A DNA stretch of 64,000 nt from Candidatus Ozemobacteraceae bacterium (GCA_035373905.1 DAOSOK010000004.1:33271-97270); one strand, 5' to 3'. Counted from the stretch's first letter, positions 38,755 through 61,007 are shown. The notes: generated from the letters alone by a model not told the origin. Made by a program: numbers and translations.

Positions 38755-39006
38755 CGAGACGATCACTGGCGAATGTGCCGGTTTCGGAGGAGGGGCTGGG
38801 GTTGAAGAACTGAGACGGAAGCGCTGAAAACGATTGGAAGCGGGCTTTTTTCAGGCTCGTTGGCGCGTTCCGTCGTGGGTGAGACGCTCGAAGTGAAGCC
38901 CCACCTTCGTTCTTGCCCCTTCACATCAGCTGGAATTCGATGGAAGTTCCCCTGATGTCCTGACAGCGATACGGACCGCTCGGCCTGCCAGGAAGATGAG
39001 GGGTCA

Positions 39007-40497: not shown

Positions 40498-40571
40498 GCG
40501 TACTTGTGGAATTTCCATGGAATGTGATGTAAAATCACGGGGAATGACCATATCTCCGAGGAGGCTCATGC

Positions 40572-45773: not shown

Positions 45774-45808
45774 ACCTCGATTCTTCGGCCGGAACGGTCG
45801 ATCCGGTT

Positions 45809-46306
45809 TCACAGGAACTTCGTTTCGGGATTGAACACCAGGGCCGTGGCTCTGAGTCTGCGTTCGGGCTGATTGACGGCGGTCTTTCCGCCCTTGTCGC
45901 GCCATCGGATCTCGGCCTCGAAGTAAATCTCGACGAGCTGGTTCGACTCGTTTTTCGTGCCCGTCATCGAGGTCTCCACCCAGAACTCCCGGTCGCCCGT
46001 CTTCTTCTGTTCGTCGAGCGCGGCGACCGTCTCGGGATAATACTTTTCGGGAATCGCGAACTTCTTTTCCTGCAGTACGTCGGGACATTCCTTCACATAC
46101 GTCGCAAAGGGAACGTGCTTGACCTCTTCGATCAGCCGATTGAGGATGGCGGCAGCCTGCGACTGATTGCTGGTTCGCGCCGTGGCGGTGTAGTTGCCGG
46201 TTATCAAACGCAGGAGCGGCAGGAGCGCGAGGGCGATGATGGCGACCGCGACCATGATCTCGATCATGGTGATGCCGCTCCGGCGCCGGTCACGACAAGC
46301 CGTCAT
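45809..46306 (-). CDS. prepilin-type N-terminal cleavage/methylation domain protein (pseudopilin-like)
   Basis: Start at the ATG at 46306: MTACRDRRRSG|ITMIEIMVAVAIIALALLPLL, with Glu at +5. Confidence 0.65.
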   Translation of the reverse strand: MTACRDRRRSGITMIEIMVAVAIIALALLPLLRLITGNYTATARTSNQSQAAAILNRLIEEVKHVPFATYVKECPDVLQEKKFAIPEKYYPETVAALDEQKKTGDREFWVETSMTGTKNESNQLVEIYFEAEIRWRDKGGKTAVNQPERRLRATALVFNPETKFL

Positions 46307-46307
46307 G

Positions 46308-49187
46308 TCAGTCCACCTTCCAGGTCGACCATTTCGGCGACAGAACGAGGTGATACCGGCGCGGGTCGAACTTGCCGGTTTTCGGATGGAGGCTGCCGAG
46401 AGAGGCACGGACGCGCGAGGCGATGTAGTCGATCATCACGTGGCCTTGCATGCGCATCTTGTCGACGCGGTTCGTCACCCAGTTCCCCTGGATGTTCAGC
46501 GACGTGCTCGGGGAGACGTAGAGGCCGACGTTGGTGTACAGGGAGCCTTCGAACGTCAGATTTCCGGGCTTGGTGGCGATCAGGCCGCCGTTGCGCACGA
46601 TCAGGCTGAACACCGTTCGCTTGTCGGGGTTTTCTGCTGCGGCCGCGTCGTCGATGCACGCGACGTTGCAGCCGAGATAGGCGTTGCCGGAGCAGACGAT
46701 CATGCCCTTCCCGACGACGTTGAAGGTGTCTCCCTCGGCCGGGGCGAAGGGCTTTTCATCCGAGCCGAGCGAGCCTGCGATGAAGTTGACGCCGTTCAGC
46801 ATGAACGCCTTGCCCTTGGGGGTGTCGACCATGCGGTTGGGCAGGTCCTTCAGGAACGCTTCGTAGGTGGGGTAATAGTAGGTTGCCTTCTTCGCGAACT
46901 GCTCGATCGCGTAGAAATTGGCGGGACAGTTGATCATCTTGGCCGGGTCATACGCCGTCAGAGCCGTGTCGGCGGCGTTCGTCTCGACGTCGAACGGCTT
47001 GAGGAACCACAAATTATAGTCATATTTATTGATGACTTCGTCGCAGAACCATACAGGGATCGGAACCGGCGGGACGAAACACCACGGCGGCGGGAACGGC
47101 AGCAGCGGGAGCCGGTCGGCCTGCGACAGGCCGATGATCGTGACATGCCACTGGCGGTAGCGCTTCGCCACCATGCCTTCGATGTCGCGGGACAGCGTCG
47201 GATACTGGCTGTTCGTGCCGAAGAAGTGGGTCTTGTTCTGGCCCCATCCCAGTGTCGGAAGGGTATAGATGCTGTTGCGCGTGCCCATCCAGGGGAGCTC
47301 GAAATCGATGAACGCATCGTCCTCCATCATGGGGTCGCCGAACGAGATCGTGGCGTTCGGGAGGGACTTGCCGAGCCCCCGGAGGGCGAGGGATATGCCA
47401 AAATGAATGATGGTGCTGCTGACCTTTGATATGTCGGGAATGAAGTTGATCCCGTCCGGCTTGTCTTTGTCGGGAGATTCCGCCGGCGGTTCGGGGGCCC
47501 ACCATTTGCCTGCGTTCACCCGCTTGATGCTGGAACGCCATTTTTCGCGGTTCTCCTTGTATACCGGATCCTTGTTGAGGAATTTCGCTTTCCCGGAGAT
47601 ATCCGATGAAAAGGCGAAGCCGCGGTTCAGCTTCTCGAATTTCAGGCTCTTGATGCTCGGAATACCGTATTTTTCGGCGTCGAGCTTTTTCGATTTCGTG
47701 TAGAAGGTCAAATCGACGTTATAGTCCGCCTTGGACACGACCATGTCCTTGTCCCGGCCGAGCATCATCAGGCCGTCGATGCCGCCGGAGAGATTCAAAA
47801 AGGTGTTCCCGACCGCGTTCTGGGCGAACTGCGGCCCCTTCCAGTCGCCCATCATGGAGCAGTTGACCAGCAGGGGCGTGCCGGGCTCCTCGTCGCTCTT
47901 GTAATCGTCGGGCATGTAGTTGATGCGGATCTGGCCGCCGACTTCCTTGTTCTTCTCGCGGGTTTCCTTGTCCTGGATCCGGCCGCCGCTGTTGTTGACG
48001 TAGAAGCTGCCGCCGTAGTCGTTGAAATTCATCTTGTCGTTGCTGAGGTTCGCCGCGAAGAAGCTGTACAAGGGCGCCATCGGCTGGATATCGGATACTT
48101 TGAATTCCTTCGTCGCCTCGATGCGGCGTTCCGAGAAGGTGCCGTCCTTGAAATTGATGCGAGCGACCGACAGCAGCTTGATTTCGCCGTATTTCTCGAC
48201 GTGATACTCGAACCCGGTCGGGATCTCGCCTATTCCAGCGGGCCAGAGATCCGCGATCTTGGGAAAGAAGTTCTCGTCATACAGCCACTTGAAGGGGTAG
48301 ATGTTCGGCTTGCCGAACGCCTGGGCGATCATGCGCGCGATCACGTCGAGCGTGAAATAATCATTGACGCCGAGGCCGTCGGGGCGGTTGCAGTTCGACG
48401 CGAACTCGCTGCCCTTGGTGAGGGGCTTGACCGCGAGGTCGATCACCGGCGTCGGGTCGATCGTCGCGAGCGTGATCTCCTTGTTGATCAGGGGGATCCA
48501 CACCTTGATGGGAATGGCGAAGTTGAACAGCTTCAGCCAGTCAGGAAAATACAGCAGGAATGCCATTCTGCCCTTGTTTTCGAGGAAGTCGAGGATGTCC
48601 TGACGCGTCGAAAACTCGATATCTATACCAGGAACTTTATATTCTCCCTCGGCGGGCTTCTTCGGGGCGATGCGGAACGCTTTGTCGATCTCGACGGTGA
48701 CCGTGACCTCGAAGTCCTTCGCCCTGCCGTCGCCCATGTAGTCGACGAGCTTGTCCATCGTGTCTTCTCCCTGCGGCTTGAGGCGCAGGTCGGCGGTCTT
48801 GAGCTCGATCTTGTTCTTGAACGGCGTGTTGTCGAACCCCTTCACATCGAGTAGTTCGTCGGTTCCGAGGTCTCCGCCGAAGGTGTAGGGATTGTTCGCG
48901 GCGGCCTTGAGCGGGTAGCGCAGCAGGATCGCGAAGTTCTGGATCTTCGCGTCGGACTTGAACATGTCGGGATTGTTCATCGACTTGCTGAGCATGTGGA
49001 CGGCGCGGTTGAGCCCGGCCTCCGCGAGACAGGCTGCCTGGTCTCCCGTGACGGAGCGGCGCGTCTGCCTGCCCCGTTCGACGGTCGAGTTCGCCAGATG
49101 CATCGACACGAGGAAAATCAGCGACAGGAAGACGATGACGACGGAAAGGATATTCCCTTGCCGAGCGAATGCTTGCCTGTTTCGCAT
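46308..49187 (-). CDS. very large (~960 aa) N-terminally membrane-anchored secreted protein, encoded in a pseudopilin cluster
   Basis: Start at the ATG at 49187 (MRNRQAFARQGNILSVVIVFLSLIFLVSM). No enzymatic motifs recognised; Trp/Tyr/Asn-rich. Position and N-terminus resemble GspK/PilX-type large minor-pilin-like proteins. Confidence 0.45.
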   Translation of the reverse strand: MRNRQAFARQGNILSVVIVFLSLIFLVSMHLANSTVERGRQTRRSVTGDQAACLAEAGLNRAVHMLSKSMNNPDMFKSDAKIQNFAILLRYPLKAAANNPYTFGGDLGTDELLDVKGFDNTPFKNKIELKTADLRLKPQGEDTMDKLVDYMGDGRAKDFEVTVTVEIDKAFRIAPKKPAEGEYKVPGIDIEFSTRQDILDFLENKGRMAFLLYFPDWLKLFNFAIPIKVWIPLINKEITLATIDPTPVIDLAVKPLTKGSEFASNCNRPDGLGVNDYFTLDVIARMIAQAFGKPNIYPFKWLYDENFFPKIADLWPAGIGEIPTGFEYHVEKYGEIKLLSVARINFKDGTFSERRIEATKEFKVSDIQPMAPLYSFFAANLSNDKMNFNDYGGSFYVNNSGGRIQDKETREKNKEVGGQIRINYMPDDYKSDEEPGTPLLVNCSMMGDWKGPQFAQNAVGNTFLNLSGGIDGLMMLGRDKDMVVSKADYNVDLTFYTKSKKLDAEKYGIPSIKSLKFEKLNRGFAFSSDISGKAKFLNKDPVYKENREKWRSSIKRVNAGKWWAPEPPAESPDKDKPDGINFIPDISKVSSTIIHFGISLALRGLGKSLPNATISFGDPMMEDDAFIDFELPWMGTRNSIYTLPTLGWGQNKTHFFGTNSQYPTLSRDIEGMVAKRYRQWHVTIIGLSQADRLPLLPFPPPWCFVPPVPIPVWFCDEVINKYDYNLWFLKPFDVETNAADTALTAYDPAKMINCPANFYAIEQFAKKATYYYPTYEAFLKDLPNRMVDTPKGKAFMLNGVNFIAGSLGSDEKPFAPAEGDTFNVVGKGMIVCSGNAYLGCNVACIDDAAAAENPDKRTVFSLIVRNGGLIATKPGNLTFEGSLYTNVGLYVSPSTSLNIQGNWVTNRVDKMRMQGHVMIDYIASRVRASLGSLHPKTGKFDPRRYHLVLSPKWSTWKVD

Positions 49188-49228
49188 ATGCGTTTCTCCC
49201 TGTTTCGCCTTGGAGCGTGATGTCGCCA

Positions 49229-50044
49229 TCAGCCGCCCGGATTTTTCGGATAGATGGATTCGCTGTCCGGAAGGTCGGTCGGGTGGAGCTTGCGGGCCTC
49301 TTCGATCGCCTTCATGAATGTCGTCACGTCGACGTTTGTTCCCATTGCGAGATTGCCTTTGACCAGTTCCTCGCGCAGGCGGCCCGGGTCGACCTTCGCG
49401 AGCTGGGCGAACATCTCCGACGCCCTGGCGATATTGTCGGCCACCGGCCCGTAGACGTGCTTGAGCTTCTGCGCCGCGAGGGCGTAGTTTTTGAACGCCT
49501 TCACGAACTCGTCGATATTGCCGGCGCGCTTGTAAACCTCCATCAGACCGCCGTAGGCCTCGACTTCGAGAAACGCATTGTCACGCGCCTGGGAAACGGC
49601 ATTCTTGTAGAATACCTCGGCCGCCTTGAGATCGCCTCGGTCGAGGCAGGCGTTGCCTTCGATCATGTCGGGGTTGTCGGCGACCTCCGACATGCTGACG
49701 CCTTCAGGGGACATGCCCTGCGGATACGCTTGACTGCGCGGGGCGGACTGGATTTTTTCCCAGGCCTTGTCGAGTTCTTTTTCGACATGGCTCTGCCCGC
49801 TTTCGATCTGGGCCATGACCCCTCCGCCACCGGCCGACGAGCCGCCGCCCGAGCCCGAAGGCCGGGTTTGCAGGATGTCGAAGGCCGATGCGCGACTCTC
49901 GAGCGTGTGCGACGAGAACGACTGCTCTTCCGTCGATTTCTCGATGGTGACGAGGATATACACCACCGGAATGAGCAGAAGGAGACAACCGGCGAGAAAC
50001 CAGCGGATGTCGCTCAAATCGATTCTGTCGTAATACCTGCTCAT
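49229..50044 (-). CDS. membrane-anchored helical (TPR-like) protein
   Basis: N-terminal TM (IRWFLAGCLLLLIPVVYILVTI), a Gly/Ser-rich linker, and helical TPR-like repeats (GDLKAAEVFYKNAVSQARDNAFLEVEAYGGLMEVYKRAGNIDEFVKAFKNY). First gene of the minus-strand operon. Confidence 0.45.
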   Translation of the reverse strand: MSRYYDRIDLSDIRWFLAGCLLLLIPVVYILVTIEKSTEEQSFSSHTLESRASAFDILQTRPSGSGGGSSAGGGGVMAQIESGQSHVEKELDKAWEKIQSAPRSQAYPQGMSPEGVSMSEVADNPDMIEGNACLDRGDLKAAEVFYKNAVSQARDNAFLEVEAYGGLMEVYKRAGNIDEFVKAFKNYALAAQKLKHVYGPVADNIARASEMFAQLAKVDPGRLREELVKGNLAMGTNVDVTTFMKAIEEARKLHPTDLPDSESIYPKNPGG

Positions 50045-50139: not shown

Positions 50140-51321
50140 GTGAAGTCGCATCGGAGAGTAAACGGAACACCCCACGCCCGGTGGGCGGCAATCGCGCTGC
50201 TCATCGGTATTTTGGCATGCGGTACATCCCTCTTCGGGCTTCCTGTGCCGATGCAACTGGCGCCCCCCTGCTCGCTCGAACGAACCGAGCGGAACGTCAC
50301 CACCCCGTTCGGACCCTGGCGCGAACGGTCGGAACAACGAATTACCTACGGCCATTTCACGCCGTATCTCTCGAGCGAATTCCAGTTCCGGCACGCGATC
50401 TTCAAGCATGAGTGGGGCACCAGGACAGGCCGCGACTTCCTCACGCAGGCGTCGTTTTCCGGCAGAAACATGAACTCCCCCATGAGCTTCAAGGTGGGGC
50501 GCATCTGGAGCGGTAACGCCCTGTTCCGGCCGGTCGACGGCGGCTCCTGGACGTATCCGTGGGGCAGGCGGCTGAGTACGACCCTCGAAGCCGGCCGGCT
50601 CGCGACGCACGATCTCAAGGACGACACGAACAAGCCGGGATATTTCGAAGGCCGCCTCAACTACCGGTTCAACGAGCAGACGACGTTCGCGATCCTCTCG
50701 GAACAGGAATGGCACGACCGGTATAGCGCCGCGCAGCTGGGATACGTGATCGACGCGCTCCGGCTGATCGGGGAATACCGCTCGAGCGGAGCGACCGACA
50801 CGTGGCGCATGGGCATGCAGTATTACGACGGGAAGTGCGTCGATCTGACCGCCGATTACCGGCTCAACTACAACGATGCCACCAACTCGGGGGTCGGCCG
50901 TGCGACCGCCGGGTTCGAATCGGGCCAGATGTATTTCGAAAGCTCGGTTGGAGGTCGATTCTTCTTCGAGAAGGAGAAAATTCCGGACAGCACGTTTTAC
51001 GAGGGGAACGTCACCTGGGGAAACACGCGACTCGGCGAAAGCACCGCGGGGCTTGGTTACACGGTCGAGTCGGGGGTGGCTTCGGTGAGCCGCACGATTT
51101 CCGGCACGGTCGAGCGCGTCGTCACGAAACGCACCCGGATCGGCCTGACGCTCGCCGAAACCCGTTTCGATCAGGGCAAAACGAACGTGCAGAACATGGA
51201 AAGCCGGCTCCATCGGCGCGTCGACTGGGGATTTTACGAACTCAGGTTCGCGCTGATTTCCGGCGGCGCTGACTCGGATCTCGAAAAGGACATCGCTCTC
51301 AGAGCCGGCTACGAATTCTGA
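50140..51321 (+). CDS. putative outer-membrane beta-barrel protein
   Basis: GTG start and signal peptide; alternating Tyr/Gly-rich amphipathic strands; C-terminus ...LRAGYEF ends in aromatic-x-Phe, as is typical for OMP targeting. Confidence 0.5.
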   Translation: MKSHRRVNGTPHARWAAIALLIGILACGTSLFGLPVPMQLAPPCSLERTERNVTTPFGPWRERSEQRITYGHFTPYLSSEFQFRHAIFKHEWGTRTGRDFLTQASFSGRNMNSPMSFKVGRIWSGNALFRPVDGGSWTYPWGRRLSTTLEAGRLATHDLKDDTNKPGYFEGRLNYRFNEQTTFAILSEQEWHDRYSAAQLGYVIDALRLIGEYRSSGATDTWRMGMQYYDGKCVDLTADYRLNYNDATNSGVGRATAGFESGQMYFESSVGGRFFFEKEKIPDSTFYEGNVTWGNTRLGESTAGLGYTVESGVASVSRTISGTVERVVTKRTRIGLTLAETRFDQGKTNVQNMESRLHRRVDWGFYELRFALISGGADSDLEKDIALRAGYEF

Positions 51322-51465: not shown

Positions 51466-51635
51466 GCGGCAACGCGGAGCTGGCTTTTGCAATGCAGAAA
51501 TCAAATGAATATCGAACCTCCGCAGTTTCGTTCTGGCCTCGGAATGCTCGTTGATTCCTGTTGCCGGGGCATCTTCGTTCGCGTAGACTTGGATGCATAC
51601 CGTTTTGACCAGCGATTCCCGCCAGGAGGTCCCCC

Positions 51636-54600
51636 TTGCTTTTCGAGAAGATCCTGAGGATTGAACAACTGCCGTTCGATGCCGGCCGCATTGCCGTTTC
51701 CTGCGATGTCGGCGAGGGCCGTTGGGTCGACATGACCTACGGGGAGCTCGTCGAGATCGTGGGCGAGGTGGGCCGCATTCTCGGCGAGAGCGGCGTCAGA
51801 AAGGGCGAGCGCATTCTCCTCGTCGGCGAGAATCACTACAAGTGGCTGCCGGTGTTCCTCGGCATCACGGGATACGGCGCCGTCGCCGTGCCGGTCGACG
51901 GGATGCTCGCGGACAAGCGCCTGCTCGGCATCATCGAGAACTGCAACCCCCGGGTCATCATCACGTCGAAAAAGTTCCAGGACAAGACGGCCGCCCTGGT
52001 CGATCAGCTCGGTGCAACATGTGGTGTCGTCAATTTCCACTTCGACCTGGTGCGGGTTCATGGCGAAAAGGAAACGGCACGCCTCGCTCCGGCGACGATC
52101 GAGCCTGAAGACACCGCCGCGATCATCTACACGTCGGGAACAACCGGCCGTCCGAAGGGAACGATCCTGAGCCATCGTGCTCTCGTCGCGGCCGCAGCGA
52201 TGGGTCTGTCTCTCGGAAATTATCGGCAGACCGACGTGATGCTGGCTCTTCTTCCGTTCACGCACGTGTACGGCCTCGTGAACACCGGCCTCTGCCCGCT
52301 GATGGTCGGGTCGAAGATCGTCATGACGGCTTCCTACAATCCGATCGAGATCCTGCAGGCGATCGTGCGGTTCCGCGTCAGTTTCCTGCTCGTCGTTCCG
52401 CGTCTCGCTGAAATCTTCGTGATGGCGCTCCGGCAGATGGCCCAGCCCATGCCGATCCCGAGCATGACGATGATCATCGGCGGCGCCTCGGTCGCGCCGA
52501 AGGTCATCGAAGCGCTCCGGGCGTGCGGCGTCAGGGCGTTCCAGGGCTACGGCATGACCGAGACGTCGGGCGGCATCGTCGCGTCGATGGATGGTCCGGT
52601 CAGTTCCGTCGGAAGGGCGCCCGAGGGCGTCGAGTTCAAGCTCGAGAATGCGAAGAACGGCGTCGGCGAGCTGCTGGTTTCCTCGCCGACCCTGTGCAGC
52701 GGCATCTTCGGCAGCGCCGAGGACACGAACGCGCTGTTTTCGGGAGCGTTTCTGCGGACCGGCGACCTGTGTGAGATAGATAGCGATGGCTATATATACG
52801 TGCGCGGCAGGGAAAAGGACGTCATCATCCCGCCCGGCGGCGTGAACGTCTACCCCGACGAACTCGAAATGCGGCTCGGGGCGCTGCCCTTCGCCGAGGA
52901 ATACGCCGCGCTGGGCTTTTCCGAAAACGGAAGCGAGTATCCGGCGCTGGTCGTCAAGCCGTCGAAGGCGATCCTGCAGACGAAACCGCCGGCTGAAGCC
53001 GCCGCCTTCATCGAAGAGGAGATCCGACGCATCACCGCCGACTGGCCGGAATGGGAGCGGTTCCGCAGGATTCACGTCGTTTCCGCGCCGCTGCCCCGCT
53101 CCGCGAGCCAGAAGGTGCAGCGGAACCGGCTTCTCGAAACCCTGGGGGGCGGCGCGGCTCCTGCCGCAGCGGAGCAGCCTCGGAAGAAGGCGCCCGTTTC
53201 GTGCGGCGTCGAAGCTGACCGGCAGTTCGAGATTTTCCGGAAAATCACGGGTCGGTTTCTCAACGTCGCACCCGAGGCCATCACACGCGGGAAGCGGTTT
53301 GCGGAGTTCCTGCAGCTCGATTCGCTCGGCATGGTGGCGCTCGTTTCGCAACTCTGCGAAGAGTTCCGGATCCCGATGCGCGAGCTCCAGATCGAGACGG
53401 TGCAGGATTTCGGCGGACTGTTCGACCTGCTGATCGCCGGCGGCGGCGTCGCGGCCGGAGAAGCGGTGTTCGACGAGGCCGAGCTCGAAGGACGTCTGCC
53501 GCCGCTTCTCGATTACAGCCCCGACGCCGTGAAGGCGCGCCAGCGGTTCCTGCAGAAGCGCACGGGGGCGAACGTGAAGTGCATTCCGCGCCCCGAGGAC
53601 GCGCGCTTCCTGAGCGGTAACGTCGAGGGCTTCATCGGCTTCGGCGAGATTCCGCTGGGGCTGATCGGCCCCCTCAAAGTGGCGGGCGATCACGCCCGCG
53701 GCGATTTCTACATCCCGCTGGCGACGACCGAGGGCGCGCTCGTCTCGTCCGTCGCGCGCGGGGCGCAGGTCATCACCCTCTCGGGCGGCGCGCGCGTCAA
53801 GGTCATCGCCGACAGCCTCGTCCGGGCGCCGATCTTCGTCTTCGAGACGCTGTTCGACATGATGTCCTTCAACCAGTGGATCGAGAACCATTACGACGAT
53901 CTGAAGGCCGCGGCCGAGTCGACCACGCGGCACGGCCGGCTGGAAGCGATCGAGCCGTTCCCGATGGGGTCGACCCTCTGCCTTCGGTTCGTGTATTCGA
54001 CGGGCGACGCGTCGGGCCAGAACATGACCACGATCGCGACCCACGCGGCCATCAAATGGATCGCCGCCCATTACCGGGGGCCGATGACCGACTGGTTCCT
54101 CGAGTCGAATCTGTCGGGCGACAAGAAGATCAACGGCGTCAACTTCACGCGCAATCGCGGGAAGCGCGTGATCGCCGAGGCCGAGATTCCCCTGGCGATC
54201 GTCGAGAAGCATCTCCATACCTCGGCCGATCGCATGGTGCGGCTGGGCCAGCTCTCGATGATGACCTCGCTGCACGCCCACGCGTTCGGCTCCCAGGCGC
54301 ACTACGCGAACATCCTGGCCGCTATGTTCATCGCGGCCGGCCAGGACCCCGCCTGCGTGGCCGAGTCGGCGACAGGCGTCACGAGCCTCGAACTGCGCCG
54401 CGACCGGCTTGCCGTCTCGGTCACGCTGCCGGGCCTGATGGTCGGCACCGTCGGCGGCGGCACGCGGCTTCCGACCCAGCAGGCCTGCCTGCAGATCCTC
54501 GAATGCGACGGCCCGCGCCGCGCGCGCAAGCTCGCCGAGATCGTGGCGGCCGCGGTGCTGGCCGGCGAGATCTCGCTGATCGCGGCGATGGCCGCCGACG

Positions 54601-54650
54601 AGTTCGCCGGCGCCCATGCCCGGTACGGGCGGAGCGGCGGCCATGGCTGA
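51636..54650 (+). CDS. tri-domain fusion protein: acyl-AMP ligase (adenylation) domain + phosphopantetheine carrier (ACP/PCP) domain + class-I HMG-CoA-reductase-like reductase domain
   Basis: TTG start with an AGGAGG RBS. A domain: IIYTSGTTGRPKG, GYGMTETSG, TGDL..D.DGY..RGR.KD. Carrier domain: FLQLDSLGMVAL (Ser attachment motif). C-terminal 370 aa align motif-by-motif with the HMGR catalytic domain: EGFIGFGEIPLGLIGPL~ENVIGYMPIPVGVAGPL, LATTEGALVSS~MATTEGCLVAS, TGDASGQNM~SGDAMGMNM, GDKKING~TDKKPAA, AGQDPA~CGQDAA, GTVGGGTRLPTQQACLQIL~GTVGGGTNLLPQQACLQML. Catalytic Glu/Lys/Asp and the C-terminal His are present. Confidence 0.8.
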   Translation: MLFEKILRIEQLPFDAGRIAVSCDVGEGRWVDMTYGELVEIVGEVGRILGESGVRKGERILLVGENHYKWLPVFLGITGYGAVAVPVDGMLADKRLLGIIENCNPRVIITSKKFQDKTAALVDQLGATCGVVNFHFDLVRVHGEKETARLAPATIEPEDTAAIIYTSGTTGRPKGTILSHRALVAAAAMGLSLGNYRQTDVMLALLPFTHVYGLVNTGLCPLMVGSKIVMTASYNPIEILQAIVRFRVSFLLVVPRLAEIFVMALRQMAQPMPIPSMTMIIGGASVAPKVIEALRACGVRAFQGYGMTETSGGIVASMDGPVSSVGRAPEGVEFKLENAKNGVGELLVSSPTLCSGIFGSAEDTNALFSGAFLRTGDLCEIDSDGYIYVRGREKDVIIPPGGVNVYPDELEMRLGALPFAEEYAALGFSENGSEYPALVVKPSKAILQTKPPAEAAAFIEEEIRRITADWPEWERFRRIHVVSAPLPRSASQKVQRNRLLETLGGGAAPAAAEQPRKKAPVSCGVEADRQFEIFRKITGRFLNVAPEAITRGKRFAEFLQLDSLGMVALVSQLCEEFRIPMRELQIETVQDFGGLFDLLIAGGGVAAGEAVFDEAELEGRLPPLLDYSPDAVKARQRFLQKRTGANVKCIPRPEDARFLSGNVEGFIGFGEIPLGLIGPLKVAGDHARGDFYIPLATTEGALVSSVARGAQVITLSGGARVKVIADSLVRAPIFVFETLFDMMSFNQWIENHYDDLKAAAESTTRHGRLEAIEPFPMGSTLCLRFVYSTGDASGQNMTTIATHAAIKWIAAHYRGPMTDWFLESNLSGDKKINGVNFTRNRGKRVIAEAEIPLAIVEKHLHTSADRMVRLGQLSMMTSLHAHAFGSQAHYANILAAMFIAAGQDPACVAESATGVTSLELRRDRLAVSVTLPGLMVGTVGGGTRLPTQQACLQILECDGPRRARKLAEIVAAAVLAGEISLIAAMAADEFAGAHARYGRSGGHG

Positions 54651-55413
54651 GCCCATGCGGGTGGTGTTCGTCACCTCGGATGTCACCTACGTCCGGGACA
54701 ACTACCATTCCCTCGTCCGGCGCGTCTGCGACAGGAACGCTCTGCCCGAAGGCGTCGAGCCGGTCGGCCTGGTGCTGCTGCACGTCAGCAGGGCCGTGCT
54801 CCTGAAGAACATCCTCGGGCTGCCGCTCGTCGGGGCGCCGCAGTTCGCCTTCACGCTCGCCCGCAACCTGATGCGGGCCTCCCTGCGGGACCCCCGCCCC
54901 GAGGCCGCCGAACGGGCGGGCGTTCCCGTTTTCCGGTGCGACAGCGTGAACCGGCCCGAAGCGGTGGAGTGGCTTCGCGGTCGCCGGCCAGACCTGATCG
55001 TGAACATGCGTACTAGAAATATATATAAAGATATCGTTCTTGGCCTGCCGACGATCGGGTGCATAAATATACATCACGGTATACTTCCCGAAAACCGCGG
55101 GACGATGTGCGATCTGTGGGCCTGGGCCGAGGGACGCCCCGTCGGCTTCACCATCCACTGGATGAACGCGAAAATCGACGACGGCGACATCCTCGTCCGG
55201 CGCGAGGTCGATGTGAAGGGGTTGCGCTGCTACCTCGACATTCCCCAGGCCTCGAGCCGGGTCGAGGCGCAGGCGCTGCTCGACGTGCTCGGCAGGATCC
55301 GGCGCGAAGGACGGTGGGTCGGCATACCCAACCGCACCGACGCCGTCGATTACAGGCGGAATCCAACGCCGGCGCAGATCGGCATGCTTCGACGGAAGGG
55401 ATTGAGCCTCTGA
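54643..55413 (+). CDS. stand-alone formyltransferase-fold protein (Fmt/PurN N-domain-like), without a tRNA-binding C-terminal domain
   Basis: Catalytic-loop motif GCINIHHGILPENRG (~INxHxSLLPxxRG) and downstream DDGDI (~DTGDI); the ATG overlaps the upstream gene end. Confidence 0.65.
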   Translation: MAEPMRVVFVTSDVTYVRDNYHSLVRRVCDRNALPEGVEPVGLVLLHVSRAVLLKNILGLPLVGAPQFAFTLARNLMRASLRDPRPEAAERAGVPVFRCDSVNRPEAVEWLRGRRPDLIVNMRTRNIYKDIVLGLPTIGCINIHHGILPENRGTMCDLWAWAEGRPVGFTIHWMNAKIDDGDILVRREVDVKGLRCYLDIPQASSRVEAQALLDVLGRIRREGRWVGIPNRTDAVDYRRNPTPAQIGMLRRKGLSL

Positions 55414-55430: not shown

Positions 55431-56261
55431 ATGGGTGTTTTCAGCGAGGGAAGCATCAGGCTTCCGGGGCGGGAGGTTCTCGCGTTCGGCGAATGCGGAA
55501 AAGGCACGCCGGTACTGATGCTTCACGGGAATCCCGGCGACCGGGACGACTGGGCCGGGCCGGCGAAACTTCTCGCCGAGCGCGGGTTCCGGTGCCTGGC
55601 CGTCGACCGGCCGGGGCACGGCCTGAGCAGCCCCCTGCCCGCCGAGCCTGGCCAGGCAGCCGACGCCTGTGCGGCGCTTCTCCGTTCGAACGCGGGCGGC
55701 AAGGCGATCGTCGCGGGGTACTCGATGGGGGCGCACGTTGCACTCGATCTCGCGCAGCGGCATCGGGACCTCGTTTCCGGGGTTTGTCTTGTCGCACCCT
55801 ATCTGATGCCGCGCGACGAGAACGAGCAGCCGTCCGGCCTCCCGGGACTGCTTGACATCCCTCTGCTGAGAGCGGTCCTCGGGTTGCTCCTTCCCATGCT
55901 TGGCGGAGGGAAAATCCGCCGGCACCTCGAAACGACGTTCAAACCGGCTGCCGCCGATCCGGCTCTCGTGGACGAGCTTGCCGGCAGATTCTCCACGTTC
56001 GCTTCGCTCGAGGCGACGCTCAGGGATAAAAATCTGTTTCTCGATACATACAAAAAGGTTCTGGAAGGCACGGCGACGCTCACCTGCCCCGTGCTGATGA
56101 TCACCGGCGCGGAAGATGCCGTTTCGGGAACCGCCAGCGCCGAAGCGATCAGAAAGGCGATTCCGGGCGTTCTTTCCACGGTCGTCGACGGCGGTGGCCA
56201 CGCCCTCCCCTGGACCCACGCGTCGCTCGTCGCCGACCGCATCTCCGGACGATCGGCGTGA
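55431..56261 (+). CDS. alpha/beta-hydrolase-fold protein
   Basis: Nucleophile elbow GYSMGAH, HGNPGD oxyanion region, and a C-terminal ...DGGGHALPW with His. RBS GGAAGGGGAGGG. Confidence 0.75.
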   Translation: MGVFSEGSIRLPGREVLAFGECGKGTPVLMLHGNPGDRDDWAGPAKLLAERGFRCLAVDRPGHGLSSPLPAEPGQAADACAALLRSNAGGKAIVAGYSMGAHVALDLAQRHRDLVSGVCLVAPYLMPRDENEQPSGLPGLLDIPLLRAVLGLLLPMLGGGKIRRHLETTFKPAAADPALVDELAGRFSTFASLEATLRDKNLFLDTYKKVLEGTATLTCPVLMITGAEDAVSGTASAEAIRKAIPGVLSTVVDGGGHALPWTHASLVADRISGRSA

Positions 56262-57417: not shown

Positions 57418-57615
57418 CAAAAGAAGACTTCGTCGCGGGAACGCCGAGATATCTTTTCTTGATTCTGTCTCGTCTTTGGGTTGTCTCTGCGTTTCTGCGC
57501 CTCCGCGGATGAATCACTGCGGCGCAGGCGTGATACATTCCCGGTATCGCCGTGGTATCATGAGGGGGGACCGGCTCTTCTTCTGCCGGTCCCTCGCAAA
57601 TTTGACGGAGATTCG

Positions 57616-59724
57616 ATGCCAGAACCGATGACCGGCCCCACGTGGAATACGCAGCGACCGGCGGCCCTCGCCGCGCGTCGCGGCTTTCTCCTGCCGGCCA
57701 TCGTTCTCATCGCGCTCGTACTAGCCCTGATGTTCGGCGCCCTCAGCTACATGACGAGAGGCCAGGTGCATAGTGCCGCATATTTTATCGACGCCAGTCG
57801 GGCGCTCGGGCTTGCCGAAGCGGGGGCGGGGTGGGCGATCGCCGCCCTTGCCAGCGGATCGTACACCGAGTCGCCGCCGTTCGTCCGTCGCGCTTTCTAC
57901 GACGCCATGTTCAGCGATGGCGGAACCGACTACGAGGGCGACGTCGAGCCGTGCGACGAGTTGAAGCAGTATATCAACAAACTGGGCGGCGATCTGTCGC
58001 TTCGGGTGCGGCTTTCCCGGTGGCAGCCGCTCGTCGCGGGAGCGCCGGGCTTCAAGAACGATCCGGTCGAGAAGATGGGCCGCATCGACGTGGAGGCCGT
58101 CGCCGAGGTGGGAAACGCCCGCCGGAAGGTCCGCATGAGCCGCGGGGTCAAGGTGTATCTCGCGGTGCATCCGGTGATCGGGAAGTTCACCTGCTTCATC
58201 CGGAAGAAGCCCGCTTCCGACGATCTGGTGAACGCCCTCGAACGCACGACGAACGGCGCCGGCTTCACGAACGGCACCCCGCTGGTGCTGAACAATCGCG
58301 GCGCCGGCAACGGATTCAACGTGGTGACTCCGGCTCTCGACCTTGGTGCTCTTCCGGACCTCAACGAACTGTCCAAATCATCCGGGTGGGTGTTCCTCAA
58401 TTCCGACACCGCTCCTTGGACGCTGAACCTCGCAGGTTCCGCCAATGACACCGATTACGACGACCGGTCGATGCTCCGGTTCGGGGCCTACAGCAACGAT
58501 GCTCTGCTGACGGCGGTCAACACCCCCCCGCAGGCCGGCGGGACGACGGTGACGCAGGTCAACGAGAAGTTCCAGGGCCTGAAACGCGATTACACGATCA
58601 GCAAGGGCGGCTCCGTCGTCGTCGCATCCGACTTCCTGAGCGTTCGGCATCTGTTCCCGTCCCTGCCCAAGGCCAGCATCATCCGGCCGTTCGGTACGAA
58701 CGGCGACCTGTCGCCGACCCTGCTGTTCGGGCCCGTTCTCAGGCGGTATCTTCGGGTGCGGTCGGTGGATTGCAAGATCAACATTTCCGGAGTGGACAAG
58801 ACGTTCAAGGAAGTCGGCGTTCCCGGTTTCCCCGACGAGTCGAGCTTCAAGCAGGCCTTCCTTCACCCCCCGACCTCGCCGCGGGACTACGCCGACGATT
58901 TTGTTCTATACGCACAATTATGGAACATGATCGCCGACGCGCCGGGTCTCGCCGCCGGCTGGAACAAGTGGCGGAGTTCCCAGACGACGCTGGTGTCGGA
59001 GCCGTTCATCGAGGGGCTGAACTATCTGGCTGTCGCCGAACGGGAAACCGGGACGGTGCAAAACCCCGTGTCGAAGGCATACACCGACCCGCCACCCGAC
59101 GTCGTCACCGGCCTCGACCTCTGGGCGGGAGGGTCGGAAGGGCTTCGAAAGGCGGAAGGCATCTTCGGCGCTTCCGGAAAACCCCTGTTCGAAGGGGGGC
59201 TGGGCGAGATCGAGGGGATACGGGAATTCGGACCGAAGATCACCGCCATGTATGCCGCGCCGAAGGCGTATCTCGACAGGCATCTCGACCAGTCCGGCAA
59301 CATTGCGGTGGCCGGGGTCGTGTATCTCGGGCCTGAAGACCTGCTCATCGACAGGAAGTGGAACGTGACGGCAGGCGGCGTGCTCGTCGTCGGCGGAAAC
59401 ATCGACATTCGGGCCGGCATCCGGTCCGCAGAGCCCCTGACGCTGGTCAGCACTGAAAATATAACGATAGATACATCCGAGCCGGTCGAAGCGCAGTTGA
59501 TCTGCCTGCGCGGAAAATTCACGCCCCGTAACGCCTTCACGATCAGAGGCGGCGTCGCGGCGGGAGAGATCGATCTGACCAATATGGTCAACTCTCAGAA
59601 GAAGCAGATCAACTGGGACTCCAGGTTCGATCCGTACGCCGTTTCCTCGGCCATGTCGGTCGGCTCCCCCTATCGGTACAGGGTGTCCGAAGAGGAGGAA
59701 TATGTCGTCGAACCCGGCAAGTAA
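57616..59724 (+). CDS. large (~700 aa) N-terminally membrane-anchored hypothetical protein opening the third pseudopilin cluster
   Basis: ATG at 57616 (MPEPMTG...RRGFLLPAIVLIALVLALMFGALSYM). No catalytic motifs. The C-terminal part is Gly/Val-rich and beta-helix-like (VAGVVYLGPEDLLIDRKWNVTAGGVLVVGGNIDIRAGIRS). Confidence 0.45.
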   Translation: MPEPMTGPTWNTQRPAALAARRGFLLPAIVLIALVLALMFGALSYMTRGQVHSAAYFIDASRALGLAEAGAGWAIAALASGSYTESPPFVRRAFYDAMFSDGGTDYEGDVEPCDELKQYINKLGGDLSLRVRLSRWQPLVAGAPGFKNDPVEKMGRIDVEAVAEVGNARRKVRMSRGVKVYLAVHPVIGKFTCFIRKKPASDDLVNALERTTNGAGFTNGTPLVLNNRGAGNGFNVVTPALDLGALPDLNELSKSSGWVFLNSDTAPWTLNLAGSANDTDYDDRSMLRFGAYSNDALLTAVNTPPQAGGTTVTQVNEKFQGLKRDYTISKGGSVVVASDFLSVRHLFPSLPKASIIRPFGTNGDLSPTLLFGPVLRRYLRVRSVDCKINISGVDKTFKEVGVPGFPDESSFKQAFLHPPTSPRDYADDFVLYAQLWNMIADAPGLAAGWNKWRSSQTTLVSEPFIEGLNYLAVAERETGTVQNPVSKAYTDPPPDVVTGLDLWAGGSEGLRKAEGIFGASGKPLFEGGLGEIEGIREFGPKITAMYAAPKAYLDRHLDQSGNIAVAGVVYLGPEDLLIDRKWNVTAGGVLVVGGNIDIRAGIRSAEPLTLVSTENITIDTSEPVEAQLICLRGKFTPRNAFTIRGGVAAGEIDLTNMVNSQKKQINWDSRFDPYAVSSAMSVGSPYRYRVSEEEEYVVEPGK

Positions 59725-60139
59725 CCGCATTCCAGACATCCGCACGCCGATCCCGAAGGGGGGGCGTGGTTTCACGATGATCGAACTCGTGGTCGTGGTG
59801 CTGGTTCTGACGTTGGTCGCCGGGGCGTATTTCTACGTCTGGCGCCAGCAGGGGCGTCTCTCGGCGAGCGACCAGGATGTCGCCGCGTATTACATGGCGG
59901 CGGCATCGTTCATGGACGTGTTCTACAGCGACACCAGAATGGCCCGCAGGATCGAGCCGACAACGGACGGCTGCATCATGGAAGTCATGACGTCCGGCGG
60001 CCTCCAGCAGGTGACGTACACCCTGCGAGACAACGGCATCGAGCGACTCATGAGCGGCAAGACGAAAGTGTACACGTTCGGGAAGCCGTTGCGCGAAAAT
60101 GCGAAGGTGCTCTTCCGTGTCCGGGAATTGGCTCCCTGA
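59702..60139 (+). CDS. prepilin-type N-terminal cleavage/methylation domain protein (pseudopilin-like)
   Basis: ...KGGRG|FTMIELVVVVLVLTLVAG; overlaps the upstream gene end. Confidence 0.65.
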   Translation: MSSNPASNRIPDIRTPIPKGGRGFTMIELVVVVLVLTLVAGAYFYVWRQQGRLSASDQDVAAYYMAAASFMDVFYSDTRMARRIEPTTDGCIMEVMTSGGLQQVTYTLRDNGIERLMSGKTKVYTFGKPLRENAKVLFRVRELAP

Positions 60140-60193
60140 CCGTGCGTGAAAGCGAGATTGGCCCGTGAACCATCCAACAAGGAGGTCGTTGCC

Positions 60194-60952
60194 GTGAATC
60201 GGTCTTTCGACAATGTCGTGTTCCGAGGCGCGTGTGCCCTTGCCCTGGCGTTCTGGCTGGCTGGCGCCGCGCTGGCGGTCGCCGCAGAGCCGAAGCCGCG
60301 GTATGGCGTCACCTTCGGACAGGAAGGGAACGAAGTCGAGATGCAGGTCGTTCCCGCCCGCCTGGGGGTCGCCTCGAACGCGATGCCGGCCCCGGCCGAC
60401 CCGTCGGTGCAGGGCATCGTCGCTGCCCCTTCGAAACGGCCGACGGCGCCCCTTTCCACGAGCGCTCCGGCAACTCCCGTCGAATTGAAATCCGAGTCGG
60501 TTGCGGACTACAAGGAGGACGGATTCGACGTCAGCGTCGATGATGTGGCGGGCGAGGCCGTCGCGAATGACCTGGACGCCTCCGGCAAACTTTCACTCGC
60601 GATCCTGTTCAACAACGATTCCCATGAGGTCGACCTGTCGGATGCGAAGACGATGAAAACCCTCAACAGCATCCTGAAGATGATGAAATGCCGGGCGACC
60701 CTCAAGATTCTCATCGAGGGATATGTCGATTATACGGGCACCATGGAATGGCATGCGCTGGGCAAGGCGCCCGACTTTGGCCAGGCCACATCGGAAGCCC
60801 GTGCCTATGCCGTGAAAAAATGGCTTGTCGACAACGGAATCTCCTCGCTCAGAATATCCTGCGTCGGAAAAGGGATGCGAGGCGCAGAGGGCGATTCCGA
60901 GGCGCAGCAGAAGCTGAACCGGCGCGTCGATATCGTGAAACTGTCCGAATGA
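60194..60952 (+). CDS. OmpA-family peptidoglycan-binding-domain protein (copy 1 of a tandem pair)
   Basis: GTG at 60194 with a perfect AAGGAGG RBS and signal peptide. C-terminal OmpA-like domain (IEGYVDYTG...ARAYAVKKWLVDNGIS...NRRVDIVKL). Confidence 0.7.
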   Translation: MNRSFDNVVFRGACALALAFWLAGAALAVAAEPKPRYGVTFGQEGNEVEMQVVPARLGVASNAMPAPADPSVQGIVAAPSKRPTAPLSTSAPATPVELKSESVADYKEDGFDVSVDDVAGEAVANDLDASGKLSLAILFNNDSHEVDLSDAKTMKTLNSILKMMKCRATLKILIEGYVDYTGTMEWHALGKAPDFGQATSEARAYAVKKWLVDNGISSLRISCVGKGMRGAEGDSEAQQKLNRRVDIVKLSE

Positions 60953-61007
60953 GTCCTCAGGCGCGGAACGGCGGATCCGTCGCCGGGTGGCATACGGGAG
61001 GGAAAGG

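Follow-up and report, generated by a model that had tools for sequence, protein, structure and literature searches.

Genomic locus of the fusion gene

The window, i.e. the whole 64-kb stretch of DNA that was analysed, carries on its plus strand a gene in which a FadD-like adenylation domain, a carrier (ACP) domain and a reductase domain of predicted FcrA type are fused. A conserved hypothetical gene (gene U) is located upstream, and a formyltransferase-like and an alpha/beta-hydrolase gene are located downstream. The following features are referred to throughout:

50140..51321, + strand: gene U, conserved hypothetical outer-membrane beta-barrel protein, upstream of the fusion; 393 aa if started at the GTG at 50140, 356 aa in the gene call, which begins at 50251
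51624..51629, + strand: Shine-Dalgarno-like AGGAGG, read from the sequence, 6 nt 5' of the TTG of the fusion
51636..54650, + strand: FadD-ACP-FcrA fusion gene; 1004 aa, TTG start, TGA stop, uninterrupted ORF
51684..53150, + strand: adenylation (acyl-AMP-forming, FadD-like) domain, residues 17-505; PF00501 at residues 17-357 (1.2e-65)
53208..53438, + strand: carrier (phosphopantetheine-binding) domain, residues 525-601; Ser563 codon at 53322-53324
53520..54632, + strand: FcrA-type (class-I-HMGR-fold) thioester reductase domain, residues 629-999; predicted function
54655..55413, + strand: formyltransferase-like gene, 252 aa, ATG at 54655 (54616 in the ORF lister), 4 nt past the fusion stop; PF00551 (3.1e-14)
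55431..56261, + strand: alpha/beta-hydrolase gene, 276 aa, 17 nt past the formyltransferase-like gene; matches to Abhydrolase_1/6 and Hydrolase_4, weak match to Thioesterase

The first-pass annotation had described a single uninterrupted frame of 1004 codons at 51636-54650, which is confirmed as a plus-strand ORF. The motifs it quoted, namely IIYTSGTTGRPKG, GYGMTETSG, LQLDSLGM, TTEG, DKK, GQD, GTVGGGT and a C-terminal His, are all present in the translation. The Pfam domains are found in the order it had anticipated, with AMP-binding (PF00501, 1.2e-65) followed by PP-binding (PF00550, 3.4e-5) and a full-length HMG-CoA_red domain (PF00368, 2.6e-111). The GC3 of the fusion gene is 0.86, like that of the remaining genes in the window. 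A minus-strand ORF of 1061 aa that overlaps the fusion has no Pfam match and was rejected as a high-GC shadow ORF.

Five independently assembled contigs encode exactly this 1004-aa protein, including a 194-kb contig of the NCBI MAG GCA_029547365.1 and one from an independent assembly of SRR4236788 in Logan, which excludes the assembly artefact considered at the outset. Full-length homologues form about 64 clusters (40-93% identical) and, together with the exact copies, indicate that the fusion is real and under selection. The AF2 model (pLDDT 81.8) consists of three confident domains, and the linkers between them (residues 506-523 and 607-617) are of low confidence. In one split variant (L059) the adenylation domain is encoded by a separate gene, while the carrier domain remains fused to the reductase.

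Adenylation and carrier domains

The top matches of the adenylation (A) domain are the long-chain-fatty-acid--CoA ligase PRK06187 in NCBIfam and FadD13 of M. tuberculosis in the PDB (2.5e-43), and the domain resembles such CoA ligases more than dedicated acyl-AMP ligases. Among the 64 full-length homologues, 61-64 share its motifs A3 (P-loop, residues 163-175), A5 (304-312), A7 (TGD, 375-377) and A10 (Lys493), with the A10 Lys present in all 64; the A8 motif is likewise kept.

The PF00550 match of the carrier (T) domain spans residues 535-593 and scores 24.4 bits (cut-off 20.8). Ser563, the candidate phosphopantetheine attachment site, lies in a D-S-L motif that is conserved in 63/64 homologues, and helix 563-577 of the AF2 model starts at this residue, as in carrier proteins. 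Outside their own family, the closest relatives of the A-T half are ElbD-like A-T-FAR-AGPAT ether-lipid enzymes (27-31% identity). A PPTase gene was not found in the 64-kb window.

Reductase domain

The PF00368 match at residues 631-999 covers profile positions 1-368 of 368, and AF2 models residues 629-995 with confidence. The catalytic residues of HMG-CoA reductase (HMGR) are retained, as proposed from the first reading of the sequence: E699, K830, D904 and H994 correspond to human E559, K691, D767 and H866 and are kept in 63-64 of 64 homologues. Despite this intact tetrad, three residues of the HMG-binding pocket are altered, namely E823 (human S684), L873 (K735) and F990 (L862). Position 823 is Glu in 64/65 fusions and Ser in all 15 sequences of the true HMGR type, each of which carries S-K-L at the three positions. 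Position 873 is Leu, Met, Val, Ile, Thr or Ala in 63/65 fusions (one of the hydrophobic residues Leu, Met, Val and Ile in 60) and Lys in none of them, compared with Lys in all S-K-L sequences. Position 990 is Phe in each of the 64 aligned full-length fusions and Phe or Trp in every non-S-K-L sequence. In HMGR, K735 is said to form a salt bridge with the HMG carboxylate, a role attributed to work by Istvan and Deisenhofer.

Substitutions at these three positions are also found in FcrA, a class-I-HMGR homologue that forms fatty alcohols from long-chain acyl-CoA (Grossi et al. 2025, ISME J 19:wraf035; PMC11948995). Pb-FcrA converts acyl-CoA of C14 and longer to the alcohol with NADPH but does not reduce HMG-CoA or free C16:1 aldehyde and is not inhibited by simvastatin; in N. 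pharaonis, the equivalent of Leu862 is Trp (PMC11948995). A further mark of FcrA is a hydrophobic, elongated pocket for the substrate.

A neighbour-joining tree was calculated from 62 sequences and 386 columns with 100 bootstraps, after removal of the signature columns. The split between sequences with the FcrA signature and S-K-L HMGRs was recovered in 99/100 bootstraps, and the Riflebacteria fusions were monophyletic, also in 99/100. By raw distance, the reductase domain is about equally far from archaeal HMGRs (0.53) and from other FcrA-like proteins (0.54). The Lys795 printed in the FcrA paper was presumably meant as Lys735, since residue 795 of the human sequence is Cys. Judged by the signature residues and by the separation from S-K-L HMGRs, in a tree that was built without the characterised FcrA sequences (P. 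breve, N. pharaonis), the reductase domain is of the FcrA type and not a mevalonate enzyme.

Genomic context in the window and in relatives

Gene U has no Pfam or NCBIfam match. Its AF2 model (pLDDT 78) comprises a signal helix and about 22 beta strands, the protein ends in ...RAGYEF, and Foldseek against the PDB returned porins and ushers only (TM-scores 0.3-0.4). Homologues are encoded upstream of the fusion in 19 of the 48 genome loci; those in L001, L004, L006, L007 and L010 are 40-78% identical. The family comprises only 19 protein clusters, of which the named ones are mostly from Riflebacteria/Ozemobacteraceae.

The formyltransferase-like gene directly follows the fusion gene in 43/48 genome loci; in Riflebacteria and Wallbacteria, a fusion gene nearly always has such a neighbour behind it. 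Its product has distant NCBIfam matches to ArnA, Fmt and sugar N-formyltransferases, all far below the equivalog cut-offs, and PDB matches to the same enzymes and to the LgrA F domain. The Asn/His/Asp triad of N10-formyl-THF-dependent formyltransferases ('NxH...SLLPxxRG' and 'D' motifs) is present: N151 and H153 (CINIHHGILPENRG) and D188/D189 (KIDDGD) align with Fmt and ArnA and are invariant in six orthologues, and the stretches NIHHGxLPxxRG and IDDG are invariant in the orthologues as well. The alpha/beta-hydrolase gene follows the formyltransferase-like gene in 12/48 loci, Wallbacteria and the lineage of the window itself among them. The encoded hydrolase carries a GYSMG nucleophile elbow, and its NCBIfam matches to several alpha/beta-hydrolase models, including BioH and MenH, are weak and far below cut-off.

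UbiA-like, PEP-synthase-like, BtaA-like and lipid-export genes are often found near the fusion in Riflebacteria/Wallbacteria loci, the export-type neighbours in sister lineages being HAE3/MMPL RND transporter and LolA-like genes. The gene of a distant fusion homologue (P0066) overlaps the start of a gene for a full-length alkyl-DHAP synthase homologue (4bby, 4.8e-168), and an SDR, a GPAT-like acyltransferase and a PPTase gene are encoded further downstream. Because alkyl-DHAP synthase needs a fatty alcohol, the position of P0066 upstream of it in a predicted ether-lipid operon supports fatty alcohol as the product.

Fusions of FcrA with an APH/EcKL kinase account for 45 of the best 144 representatives examined. 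FcrA-DUF3419 and DUF3419-FcrA-kinase proteins exist too.

Proposed function and alternative explanations

The gene probably encodes a self-contained FadD-ACP-FcrA reductase that converts a fatty acid to a fatty alcohol, which would feed a lipid pathway. The FadD-like domain would adenylate a long-chain fatty acid and load it on the internal carrier, where the phosphopantetheine thiol at Ser563 would hold the acyl chain as a thioester. The arm would then present this thioester to the FcrA domain at the C-terminus, which is predicted to have a class-I HMGR fold with the HMG pocket remodelled for an unbranched alkyl chain. Two hydride transfers from NADPH, both catalysed by the HMGR-type Glu/Lys/Asp/His, would convert the thioester via a bound hemithioacetal/aldehyde to the primary alcohol, which would be released with regeneration of the free thiol.

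The locus had initially been read as an A-T-HMGR enzyme that reduces a thioester to an alcohol by possibly undescribed chemistry. The mechanistic part of this reading is supported by the FcrA-diagnostic residues, the grouping with FcrA-signature sequences, the assayed activity of FcrA and the alkyl-DHAP synthase operon of P0066. The claim of undescribed chemistry falls, because FcrA was characterised in 2025 and the legend of Fig. S11 in that paper names two types of N-terminal domain found fused to it, 'FadD+ACP' being one of them (PMC11948995). Both the chemistry of an HMGR-fold fatty acyl reductase and the FadD+ACP-FcrA fusion are thus already reported; the characterisation itself covers FcrA of the Lad type, and the fusion is known from the listing (PMC11948995).

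In the distant relative P0066, the alcohol would enter classical alkyl-DHAP ether-lipid synthesis. In Riflebacteria, it may be used for a putative envelope lipid, together with the presumably co-transcribed formyltransferase-like protein and alpha/beta hydrolase and, in sister lineages, with the UbiA-like, PEP-synthase-like, BtaA-like and RND/LolA-like export genes as well. A plain fatty alcohol would not account for the formyltransferase-like partner, since enzymes of this kind normally have an amine acceptor. More tentatively, the fusion could stand at the entry to an undescribed pathway towards fatty-alcohol-derived envelope lipids in Riflebacteria/Wallbacteria, in which conserved partners elaborate the alcohol before export. 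A BtaA-like SAM:alcohol 3-amino-3-carboxypropyl transferase might form an O-alkyl-homoserine whose amine is N-formylated by the formyltransferase-like enzyme, and/or a kinase or PEP-synthase-like phosphotransferase and a UbiA-family transferase might act on an alkyl phosphate. Export could involve the HAE3/MMPL RND pump, the LolA-like carrier and gene U as a lineage-specific outer-membrane barrel. If true, conversion of a fatty alcohol to a polar head-group lipid would be a common, uncharacterised bacterial route, given the FcrA fusions with kinases and BtaA-like domains.

A rather unlikely alternative is that the A domain is an ordinary FadD making free acyl-CoA, which FcrA reduces as the stand-alone enzyme does, and that the carrier-like domain is a non-covalent lipid shuttle or scaffold. 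The FadD13-like A domain may be compatible with such an acyl-CoA route, as its best structural relatives are CoA ligases (FadD13, malonyl-CoA synthetase). The residues equivalent to those contacting the pantetheine of CoA (S565, R568) are identical in fusions and stand-alone proteins, and the PP-binding match is weak and missing from the precomputed Pfam matches of most homologues. The sole assayed FcrA uses acyl-CoA, and a 'role similar to Lad' was put forward for the carrier-like domain (PMC11948995). Covalent tethering is nevertheless favoured by the serine of the D-S-L motif, which is kept in all but one of the 64 fusions although the carrier domain is only about 38% identical overall, and which caps helix 2 in the AF2 model like that of true carrier proteins. 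The retention of the carrier with the reductase in the split variant, the PPTase gene in the P0066 cluster and the ElbD-like A-T-reductase multidomain proteins as nearest A-T relatives point in the same direction.

It is quite improbable that the substrate is another carboxylic acid (e.g. a hydroxy-, amino- or dicarboxylic acid) and that the protein supplies a natural product with a specialised diol or amino alcohol. The Riflebacteria clade does have residues of its own at several positions close to the active site (A694N, G744H, A768P, I/E801M and G860D, human numbering), and smaller pockets are found in 12 of 59 modelled FcrA-like proteins (PMC11948995). The formyltransferase partner, too, points to an amine. 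The A domain, however, matches best to long-chain fatty acyl ligases, the residue equivalent to K735 is hydrophobic in most fusions, and the neighbouring genes (UbiA, HAE3/MMPL RND transporter, LolA-like, BtaA-like) are lipid-related.

The same partner would fit a two-electron, CAR-like reduction in which the aldehyde is released, aminated and then N-formylated, since every characterised Formyl_trans_N enzyme among the PDB/NCBIfam matches formylates amines or hydrolyses formyl-THF and in most loci the gene comes immediately after the fusion. This is very improbable, as HMGR-fold enzymes including FcrA carry the aldehyde through to the second reduction without letting it go, and free aldehyde is not reduced by FcrA (PMC11948995). 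No aminotransferase was seen in any cluster examined, and the BtaA-like (DUF3419) gene in many clusters offers an alternative source of the amine.

It is hardly credible that the protein is a true HMG-thioester reductase which forms mevalonate from HMG channelled by the A-T domains: the HMG-CoA_red profile is matched in full, the top PDB match is an archaeal HMGR (1e-90) and a prenyltransferase-like UbiA-family gene lies near the fusion in many relatives, but the TIGR00533 score of 352.9 bits is below the cut-off of 441.8 bits, the three pocket residues are changed as in FcrA, which cannot reduce HMG-CoA (PMC11948995), and neither the window nor the gene tables of Riflebacteria loci L001-L007, L010 and L059 showed a gene of the mevalonate pathway. 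Among the papers searched, none treats Riflebacteria together with mevalonate.

Comparison with known systems

The FadD-ACP-FcrA protein shares with FcrA the fold, the catalytic Glu/Lys/Asp/His and the exchanges of S684 to Glu, K735 to a non-basic and L862 to a bulky aromatic residue, and it is assigned with FcrA to one group of sequences, distinct from canonical HMGRs. Its architecture is that of the FadD+ACP fusions in the legend of Fig. S11 (PMC11948995). The assayed enzyme of Ca. Promineifilum breve, in contrast, has a Lad beta-sheet N-terminal domain and uses free acyl-CoA. The Riflebacteria fusions form a clade of their own, with a few clade-specific changes near the active site, and share an operon with the formyltransferase-like gene. 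For FcrA, a role in ether-lipid synthesis was proposed beside AGPS or PlsC-like genes (PMC11948995); in the flanking DNA of the Riflebacteria fusions, no AGPS gene was detected by tblastn over 48 genome loci and no wax synthase gene was noticed in the part examined.

With canonical class I HMGRs (human 1DQ8/1DQ9 and archaeal 6HR7, the top PDB match of the reductase), the fusion has in common the full-length PF00368 fold, the catalytic residues and the NADPH-binding motifs. It differs in the replaced ligands of the HMG carboxylate, the fused A-T domains and a genomic context in which, over the window and the Riflebacteria gene tables read, no mevalonate-pathway gene was seen.

Carboxylic acid reductases (CARs; A-T-R, e.g. 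of Nocardia/Mycobacterium) and NRPS/PKS lines with terminal R domains adenylate their substrate, load it on phosphopantetheine and release it reductively with NADPH. Their R domains are of the SDR fold, and the reduction by CARs ends with the aldehyde after two electrons. The predicted logic of the fusion (adenylation, loading, reductive release) is the same, whereas its reductase has an HMGR fold and is expected to proceed to the alcohol.

ElbD of Myxococcus xanthus, as far as it is described in PMC11948995 (citing Lorenzen et al. 2014), likewise combines FadD-like and carrier domains with a four-electron fatty-acyl reductase for ether lipids. According to the same account, its reductase is an SDR-type FAR (NAD_binding_4 and Sterile) followed by a C-terminal acyltransferase, while the fusion has an HMGR fold and no acyltransferase domain; Pfam gave no NAD_binding_4, Sterile or Epimerase match in the protein. 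Because its C-terminal domain is PF00368 rather than SDR-type, the fusion, as judged from its domains, works like a CAR or ElbD but belongs to neither family.

The FadD-ACP-FcrA gene and its domain architecture

As proposed in the first-pass annotation, the adenylation, carrier and HMG-CoA-reductase-like domains are encoded in a single uninterrupted frame of 1004 codons that opens with TTG and closes with TGA. The gene and its direct neighbors are as follows.

Fusion gene and adjoining genes in the window
50140-51321, +: gene for an outer-membrane-barrel-like protein (gene U)
6 nt 5' of the fusion start: AGGAGG
51636-54650, +: fusion gene (stop codon at 54648-54650)
54655-55413: formyltransferase-like gene, 252 aa, ATG 4 nt past the fusion stop (54616-55413 according to the ORF lister)
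55431-56261: alpha/beta hydrolase gene, 17 nt after the formyltransferase-like gene

The third-position GC of the fusion gene (0.86) matches that of the adjoining genes. An antisense ORF of 1061 aa (51501-54686, -) spans the whole gene, has no family match and is most readily taken for a high-GC shadow ORF. An assembly artefact is excluded because the very same protein recurs on five contigs, one of them 194 kb long and from NCBI MAG GCA_029547365.1, another from an independent Logan assembly of SRR4236788. Every motif that had been cited from the sequence is found in the translated protein, and Pfam returned the domains in the predicted order.

Pfam domains of the fusion protein
Residues 17-357: AMP-binding, E = 1.2e-65
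Residues 535-593: PP-binding, 24.4 bits (cut-off 20.8)
Residues 631-999: HMG-CoA_red, profile positions 1-368 of 368, E = 2.6e-111

Full-length homologues of the fusion form about 64 clusters (40-93% identity), and nearly all that bear a name are assigned to Candidatus Riflebacteria, Rifleibacteriota or Ozemobacteraceae. Adenylation motifs A3, A5, A7 and A8 are kept across 64 aligned full-length fusion proteins; the A10 lysine (Lys493) is present in all 64, the carrier serine (Ser563) in 63 and the reductase residues in 63-64, with both interdomain linkers just 13-28% identical. An AlphaFold2 model built from this alignment (mean pLDDT 81.8) consists of confident domains at residues 1-505, 525-601 and 629-995, and low-confidence linkers at 506-523 and 607-617. 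Ser563 is placed at the exact start of a helix, which is the classical phosphopantetheine attachment site.

The reductase domain is of the FcrA type

Among solved structures, the reductase domain is closest to 6HR7, an archaeal HMG-CoA reductase (E = 1e-90). The expectation that the catalytic residues are all kept holds, human E559/K691/D767/H866 corresponding to E699/K830/D904/H994. Grossi et al. (2025, ISME J 19:wraf035, PMC11948995) characterised FcrA, a class-I-HMGR homologue that uses NADPH to convert fatty acyl-CoA substrates with chains from C14 upwards into fatty alcohols, does not reduce HMG-CoA, is not inhibited by simvastatin and is not active on free aldehyde. FcrA retains the catalytic tetrad and has Glu in place of Ser684 and a bulky residue in place of Leu862 (same source).

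The HMG pocket of the window protein is changed at three positions: S684 to Glu (E823), K735 to Leu (L873) and L862 to Phe (F990). In human HMGR, K735 is the lysine that forms a salt bridge with HMG, and residue 795 is a cysteine. The salt-bridging lysine that is printed as 'Lys795' in PMC11948995, and that is replaced by varied, generally small residues in FcrA, is therefore taken as Lys735. Most of the closest 'stand-alone HMGR' matches carry the same three pocket residues, so that the changes looked uninformative at first; S684 to Glu and K735 to Leu were dropped as a fusion-specific sign of a new substrate, most of these matches sharing both. Read with the published description of FcrA, the stand-alone matches that share these residues are FcrA-like, and the residues are a family signature.

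The canonical residues S-K-L (human S684, K735, L862) are found in human, Arabidopsis and 6HR7 as well as in 12 stand-alone proteins. The signature Glu/non-basic/Phe is present in the window protein and in 63 of 65 fusions, the exceptions being the distant fusion P0066 (Q-N-F) and one sequence gapped at the third position. Nearly all other stand-alone matches have Glu or Asp, a non-basic residue, and Phe or Trp. A neighbour-joining tree, computed without the three signature columns and without experimentally characterised FcrA sequences, in 99 of 100 bootstraps fully separates the non-S-K-L from the S-K-L sequences and, again in 99 of 100, groups the Riflebacteria fusions as a separate clade; about ten positions are specific to the fusion clade. 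All sequence-level characters of FcrA occur in the window protein, and its HMG-binding residues differ from those of canonical HMGR. Signature and tree separation together argue for a reductase domain of the FcrA type rather than a mevalonate enzyme.

Proposed reaction and evidence from relatives

The FadD-like domain would adenylate a long-chain fatty acid and load the acyl group covalently on the phosphopantetheine of Ser563. The FcrA domain would then reduce the thioester twice with NADPH by HMGR chemistry, a full four-electron reduction, and a fatty alcohol would be set free for lipid synthesis. This conversion of a tethered acid to the alcohol is the most likely reading overall and is held with fair confidence.

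The main alternative is that a free acyl-CoA is formed as intermediate, with the carrier acting as a passive shuttle. It can draw on the assayed FcrA of Ca. Promineifilum breve, which has a Lad domain and takes acyl-CoA as substrate (PMC11948995). Bearing on the same point is a locus with a split variant, in which the carrier has stayed on the reductase; this fits a carrier-tethered substrate, and a free intermediate is considered rather unlikely. The split could be real or a frameshift in that assembly.

Locus with the split variant
L059, 6427-10182: A domain (506 aa) and carrier-FcrA (472 aa), genes 54 nt apart, then a formyltransferase-like gene

A substrate other than a fatty acid is very unlikely. 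Among solved structures, the A domain is closest to FadD13, a fatty acyl-CoA synthetase of M. tuberculosis, and the nearest relatives of the A-T half outside its own family are ElbD-like A-T-FAR-AGPAT proteins of myxobacteria and Acidobacteria (27-31% identity). ElbD of Myxococcus xanthus is cited as the ether-lipid enzyme of Myxococcales in PMC11948995.

The most telling context for the product is that of P0066, which is 32% identical to the window protein. The P0066 gene runs into the start of a full-length alkyl-DHAP synthase homologue (4BBY, E = 4.8e-168), which is followed 3' by SDR, GPAT-like acyltransferase and holo-ACP synthase genes; genes for a PlsC-like acyltransferase and GpsA lie upstream.

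Locus with the distant fusion P0066
L009, 2803-12798: PlsC-like, GpsA, (S2 ribosomal protein, opposite strand), fusion, alkyl-DHAP synthase homologue, SDR, GPAT-like, holo-ACP synthase

This locus is a candidate for a complete ether-lipid operon of the eukaryote/myxobacterial type. A fatty alcohol is the required substrate of alkyl-DHAP synthase, and the P0066 fusion occupies the place of the fatty acyl reductase in the operon. At another locus (L008, 13327-13548), the distant fusion P0065 has its stop codon overlapped by a gene that starts with an SDR/NAD_binding_4-like 'FLTGATGFLGSYL' motif and is interrupted by the contig end; an SDR-type reductase would there adjoin the HMGR-type one.

The operon in Riflebacteria

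GTDB species genomes were scanned with the formyltransferase-like protein, which gave 48 loci. The named loci are mostly from Riflebacteria/Ozemobacteraceae, with two from Ca. Wallbacteria and a few MAGs under other taxa, possibly due to misbinning. The FcrA fusion is located directly upstream in 43 of the 48.

Genes further downstream at the 48 loci
UbiA-family gene: 24
PEP-synthase/PigC-like phosphotransferase: 17
DUF3419: 14
alpha/beta hydrolase: 12
LolA-like protein: 9
HAE3/MMPL RND transporter: 5

BtaA, the SAM:diacylglycerol 3-amino-3-carboxypropyl transferase for betaine lipids, is matched by the Pfam family DUF3419 (PMC6642084). The lineage of the window (L011-L016) has the hydrolase; the UbiA, PEP-synthase-like, DUF3419, LolA-like and HAE3/MMPL genes are absent within 10 kb. 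Many Riflebacteria carry genes of this set 3' of the fusion and the formyltransferase-like gene, as at one locus.

Locus with extended downstream genes
L026, 10001-20726: UbiA-like, PEP-synthase/PigC-like, HAE3/MMPL RND, DUF3419 (BtaA-like), LolA-like

Such genes also occur at L017, L022, L027-L029, L036, L039 and L052, and together they look like a cluster for lipid synthesis and export. Three loci (L033, L051, L056) lack the fusion; there a stand-alone fatty-acid ligase comes after the formyltransferase-like gene, with UbiA, PEP-synthase-like, DUF3419, radical-SAM or kinase genes nearby in varied combinations. An NCBIfam scan gave no specific names for the cluster partners (DUF3419, LolA-like, kinase, 438-aa and 449-aa proteins), and promoter and terminator scans round the operon did no better than on shuffled sequence.

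The formyltransferase-like protein retains the Asn/His/Asp catalytic motif. Its known relatives, as matched in PDB and NCBIfam, either formylate amines or act as formyl-THF hydrolases; a plain fatty alcohol leaves the presence of this gene unexplained. Release of the aldehyde, followed by amination and formylation, would employ it; set beside the inactivity of FcrA on free aldehyde, that route is a poor candidate. In Riflebacteria and Wallbacteria, both this almost constant partner of the fusion and the associated cluster of lipid genes are of moderate interest.

Gene U has homologues in only 19 protein clusters, the named ones mostly from Riflebacteria/Ozemobacteraceae, and is conserved upstream of the fusion gene. 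Its product is probably an outer-membrane barrel, given a signal peptide, about 22 beta strands following the signal helix in the structure model, and a C-terminal ...YEF. The resemblance to porins is merely generic; a FadL-type fatty-acid channel is unsupported by the generic barrel model and its low TM-scores to porins and ushers.

A scan of the rest of the 64-kb window revealed no lipid, PPTase or mevalonate genes. The public records label these genes 'hydroxymethylglutaryl-CoA reductase' or 'AMP-binding protein', and annotators should note that such labels could falsely imply a mevalonate pathway. A genuine HMGR forming mevalonate, to which the match to 6HR7 might point, is hardly credible in view of the pocket signature and the tree.

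Other genes in the window
44268-46088 (-), 59702-60139, 61723-62205, 60146-61721: operon flanks, genes carrying a prepilin-type N-terminal methylation motif, plus two genes of the OmpA family
46308-49229 (973 aa), 57481-59724 (747 aa): large ORFs near the operon without Pfam match
20197-22941 (-), 24069-28508 (-): predicted proteins of 914 aa and 1479 aa, coding-like GC3, no Pfam family at E ≤ 1e-4
16585-19852, 35835-41180: genes for subunits A and B of a V/A-type ATPase, and a 2-oxoacid:ferredoxin oxidoreductase set (POR_N, TPP_enzyme_C, two POR gamma genes)

The ATPase and oxidoreductase genes fit an anaerobic fermenter. The POR-RsfS-methyltransferase-radical SAM stretch 5' of the fusion is syntenic with Ca. 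Ozemobacter sibiricus (L001).

Distribution and other FcrA fusions

The fused A-T-FcrA type is rare, as an exhaustive HMMER scan across 1.84 billion cluster representatives shows. At 50% identity the Riflebacteria type is reduced to three full-length representatives; the domain order recurs in a handful of others (P0260, P0261, P0263), and two carry an additional C-terminal kinase (P0268, P0269). FcrA-like domains are frequently joined to other domains. An APH/EcKL-type kinase is found C-terminal to the FcrA-like domain in 45 of the top 144 representatives checked, these two included. BtaA-like domains occur as FcrA-DUF3419 (P0272) and DUF3419-FcrA-kinase (P0359). PilZ-FcrA fusions are represented by P0275, P0288 and P0304, and P0282 is also named among the proteins with an FcrA-like domain fused to other domains. 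The available text of PMC11948995 makes no mention of C-terminal FcrA fusions. The kinase and BtaA-like fusions suggest that fatty alcohols are commonly turned into undescribed polar lipids; fusions or co-location of this kind, like the formyltransferase-like link, point to undescribed lipids downstream.

Comparison with known systems

Undescribed chemistry had been considered for the window protein. This view is not upheld, since the chemistry of FcrA and its N-terminal FadD+ACP fusions, the latter listed in a supplementary figure legend, were both published in 2025 (PMC11948995). A literature search found no FcrA papers after that publication and nothing useful on A-T-HMGR fusions, HMG-CoA reductase-like domains, Riflebacteria mevalonate or Ozemobacter. 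The fused form is probably CoA-independent and of moderate interest. The candidate phylum Riflebacteria and Wallbacteria are placed among the users of a recently discovered HMGR-fold route to fatty alcohols, and the window protein is a concrete, expressible example of the FadD-ACP-FcrA subtype.

The working principle of A-T-reductase is common to carboxylic acid reductases (CARs), ElbD and the window protein. The reductase of CARs and ElbD is an SDR, whereas that of the window protein is not, which places it outside both families. As a single protein, the FadD-ACP-FcrA subtype would take an acid to the alcohol in a CoA-independent four-electron reduction, a practical attraction given that CARs go no further than the aldehyde.
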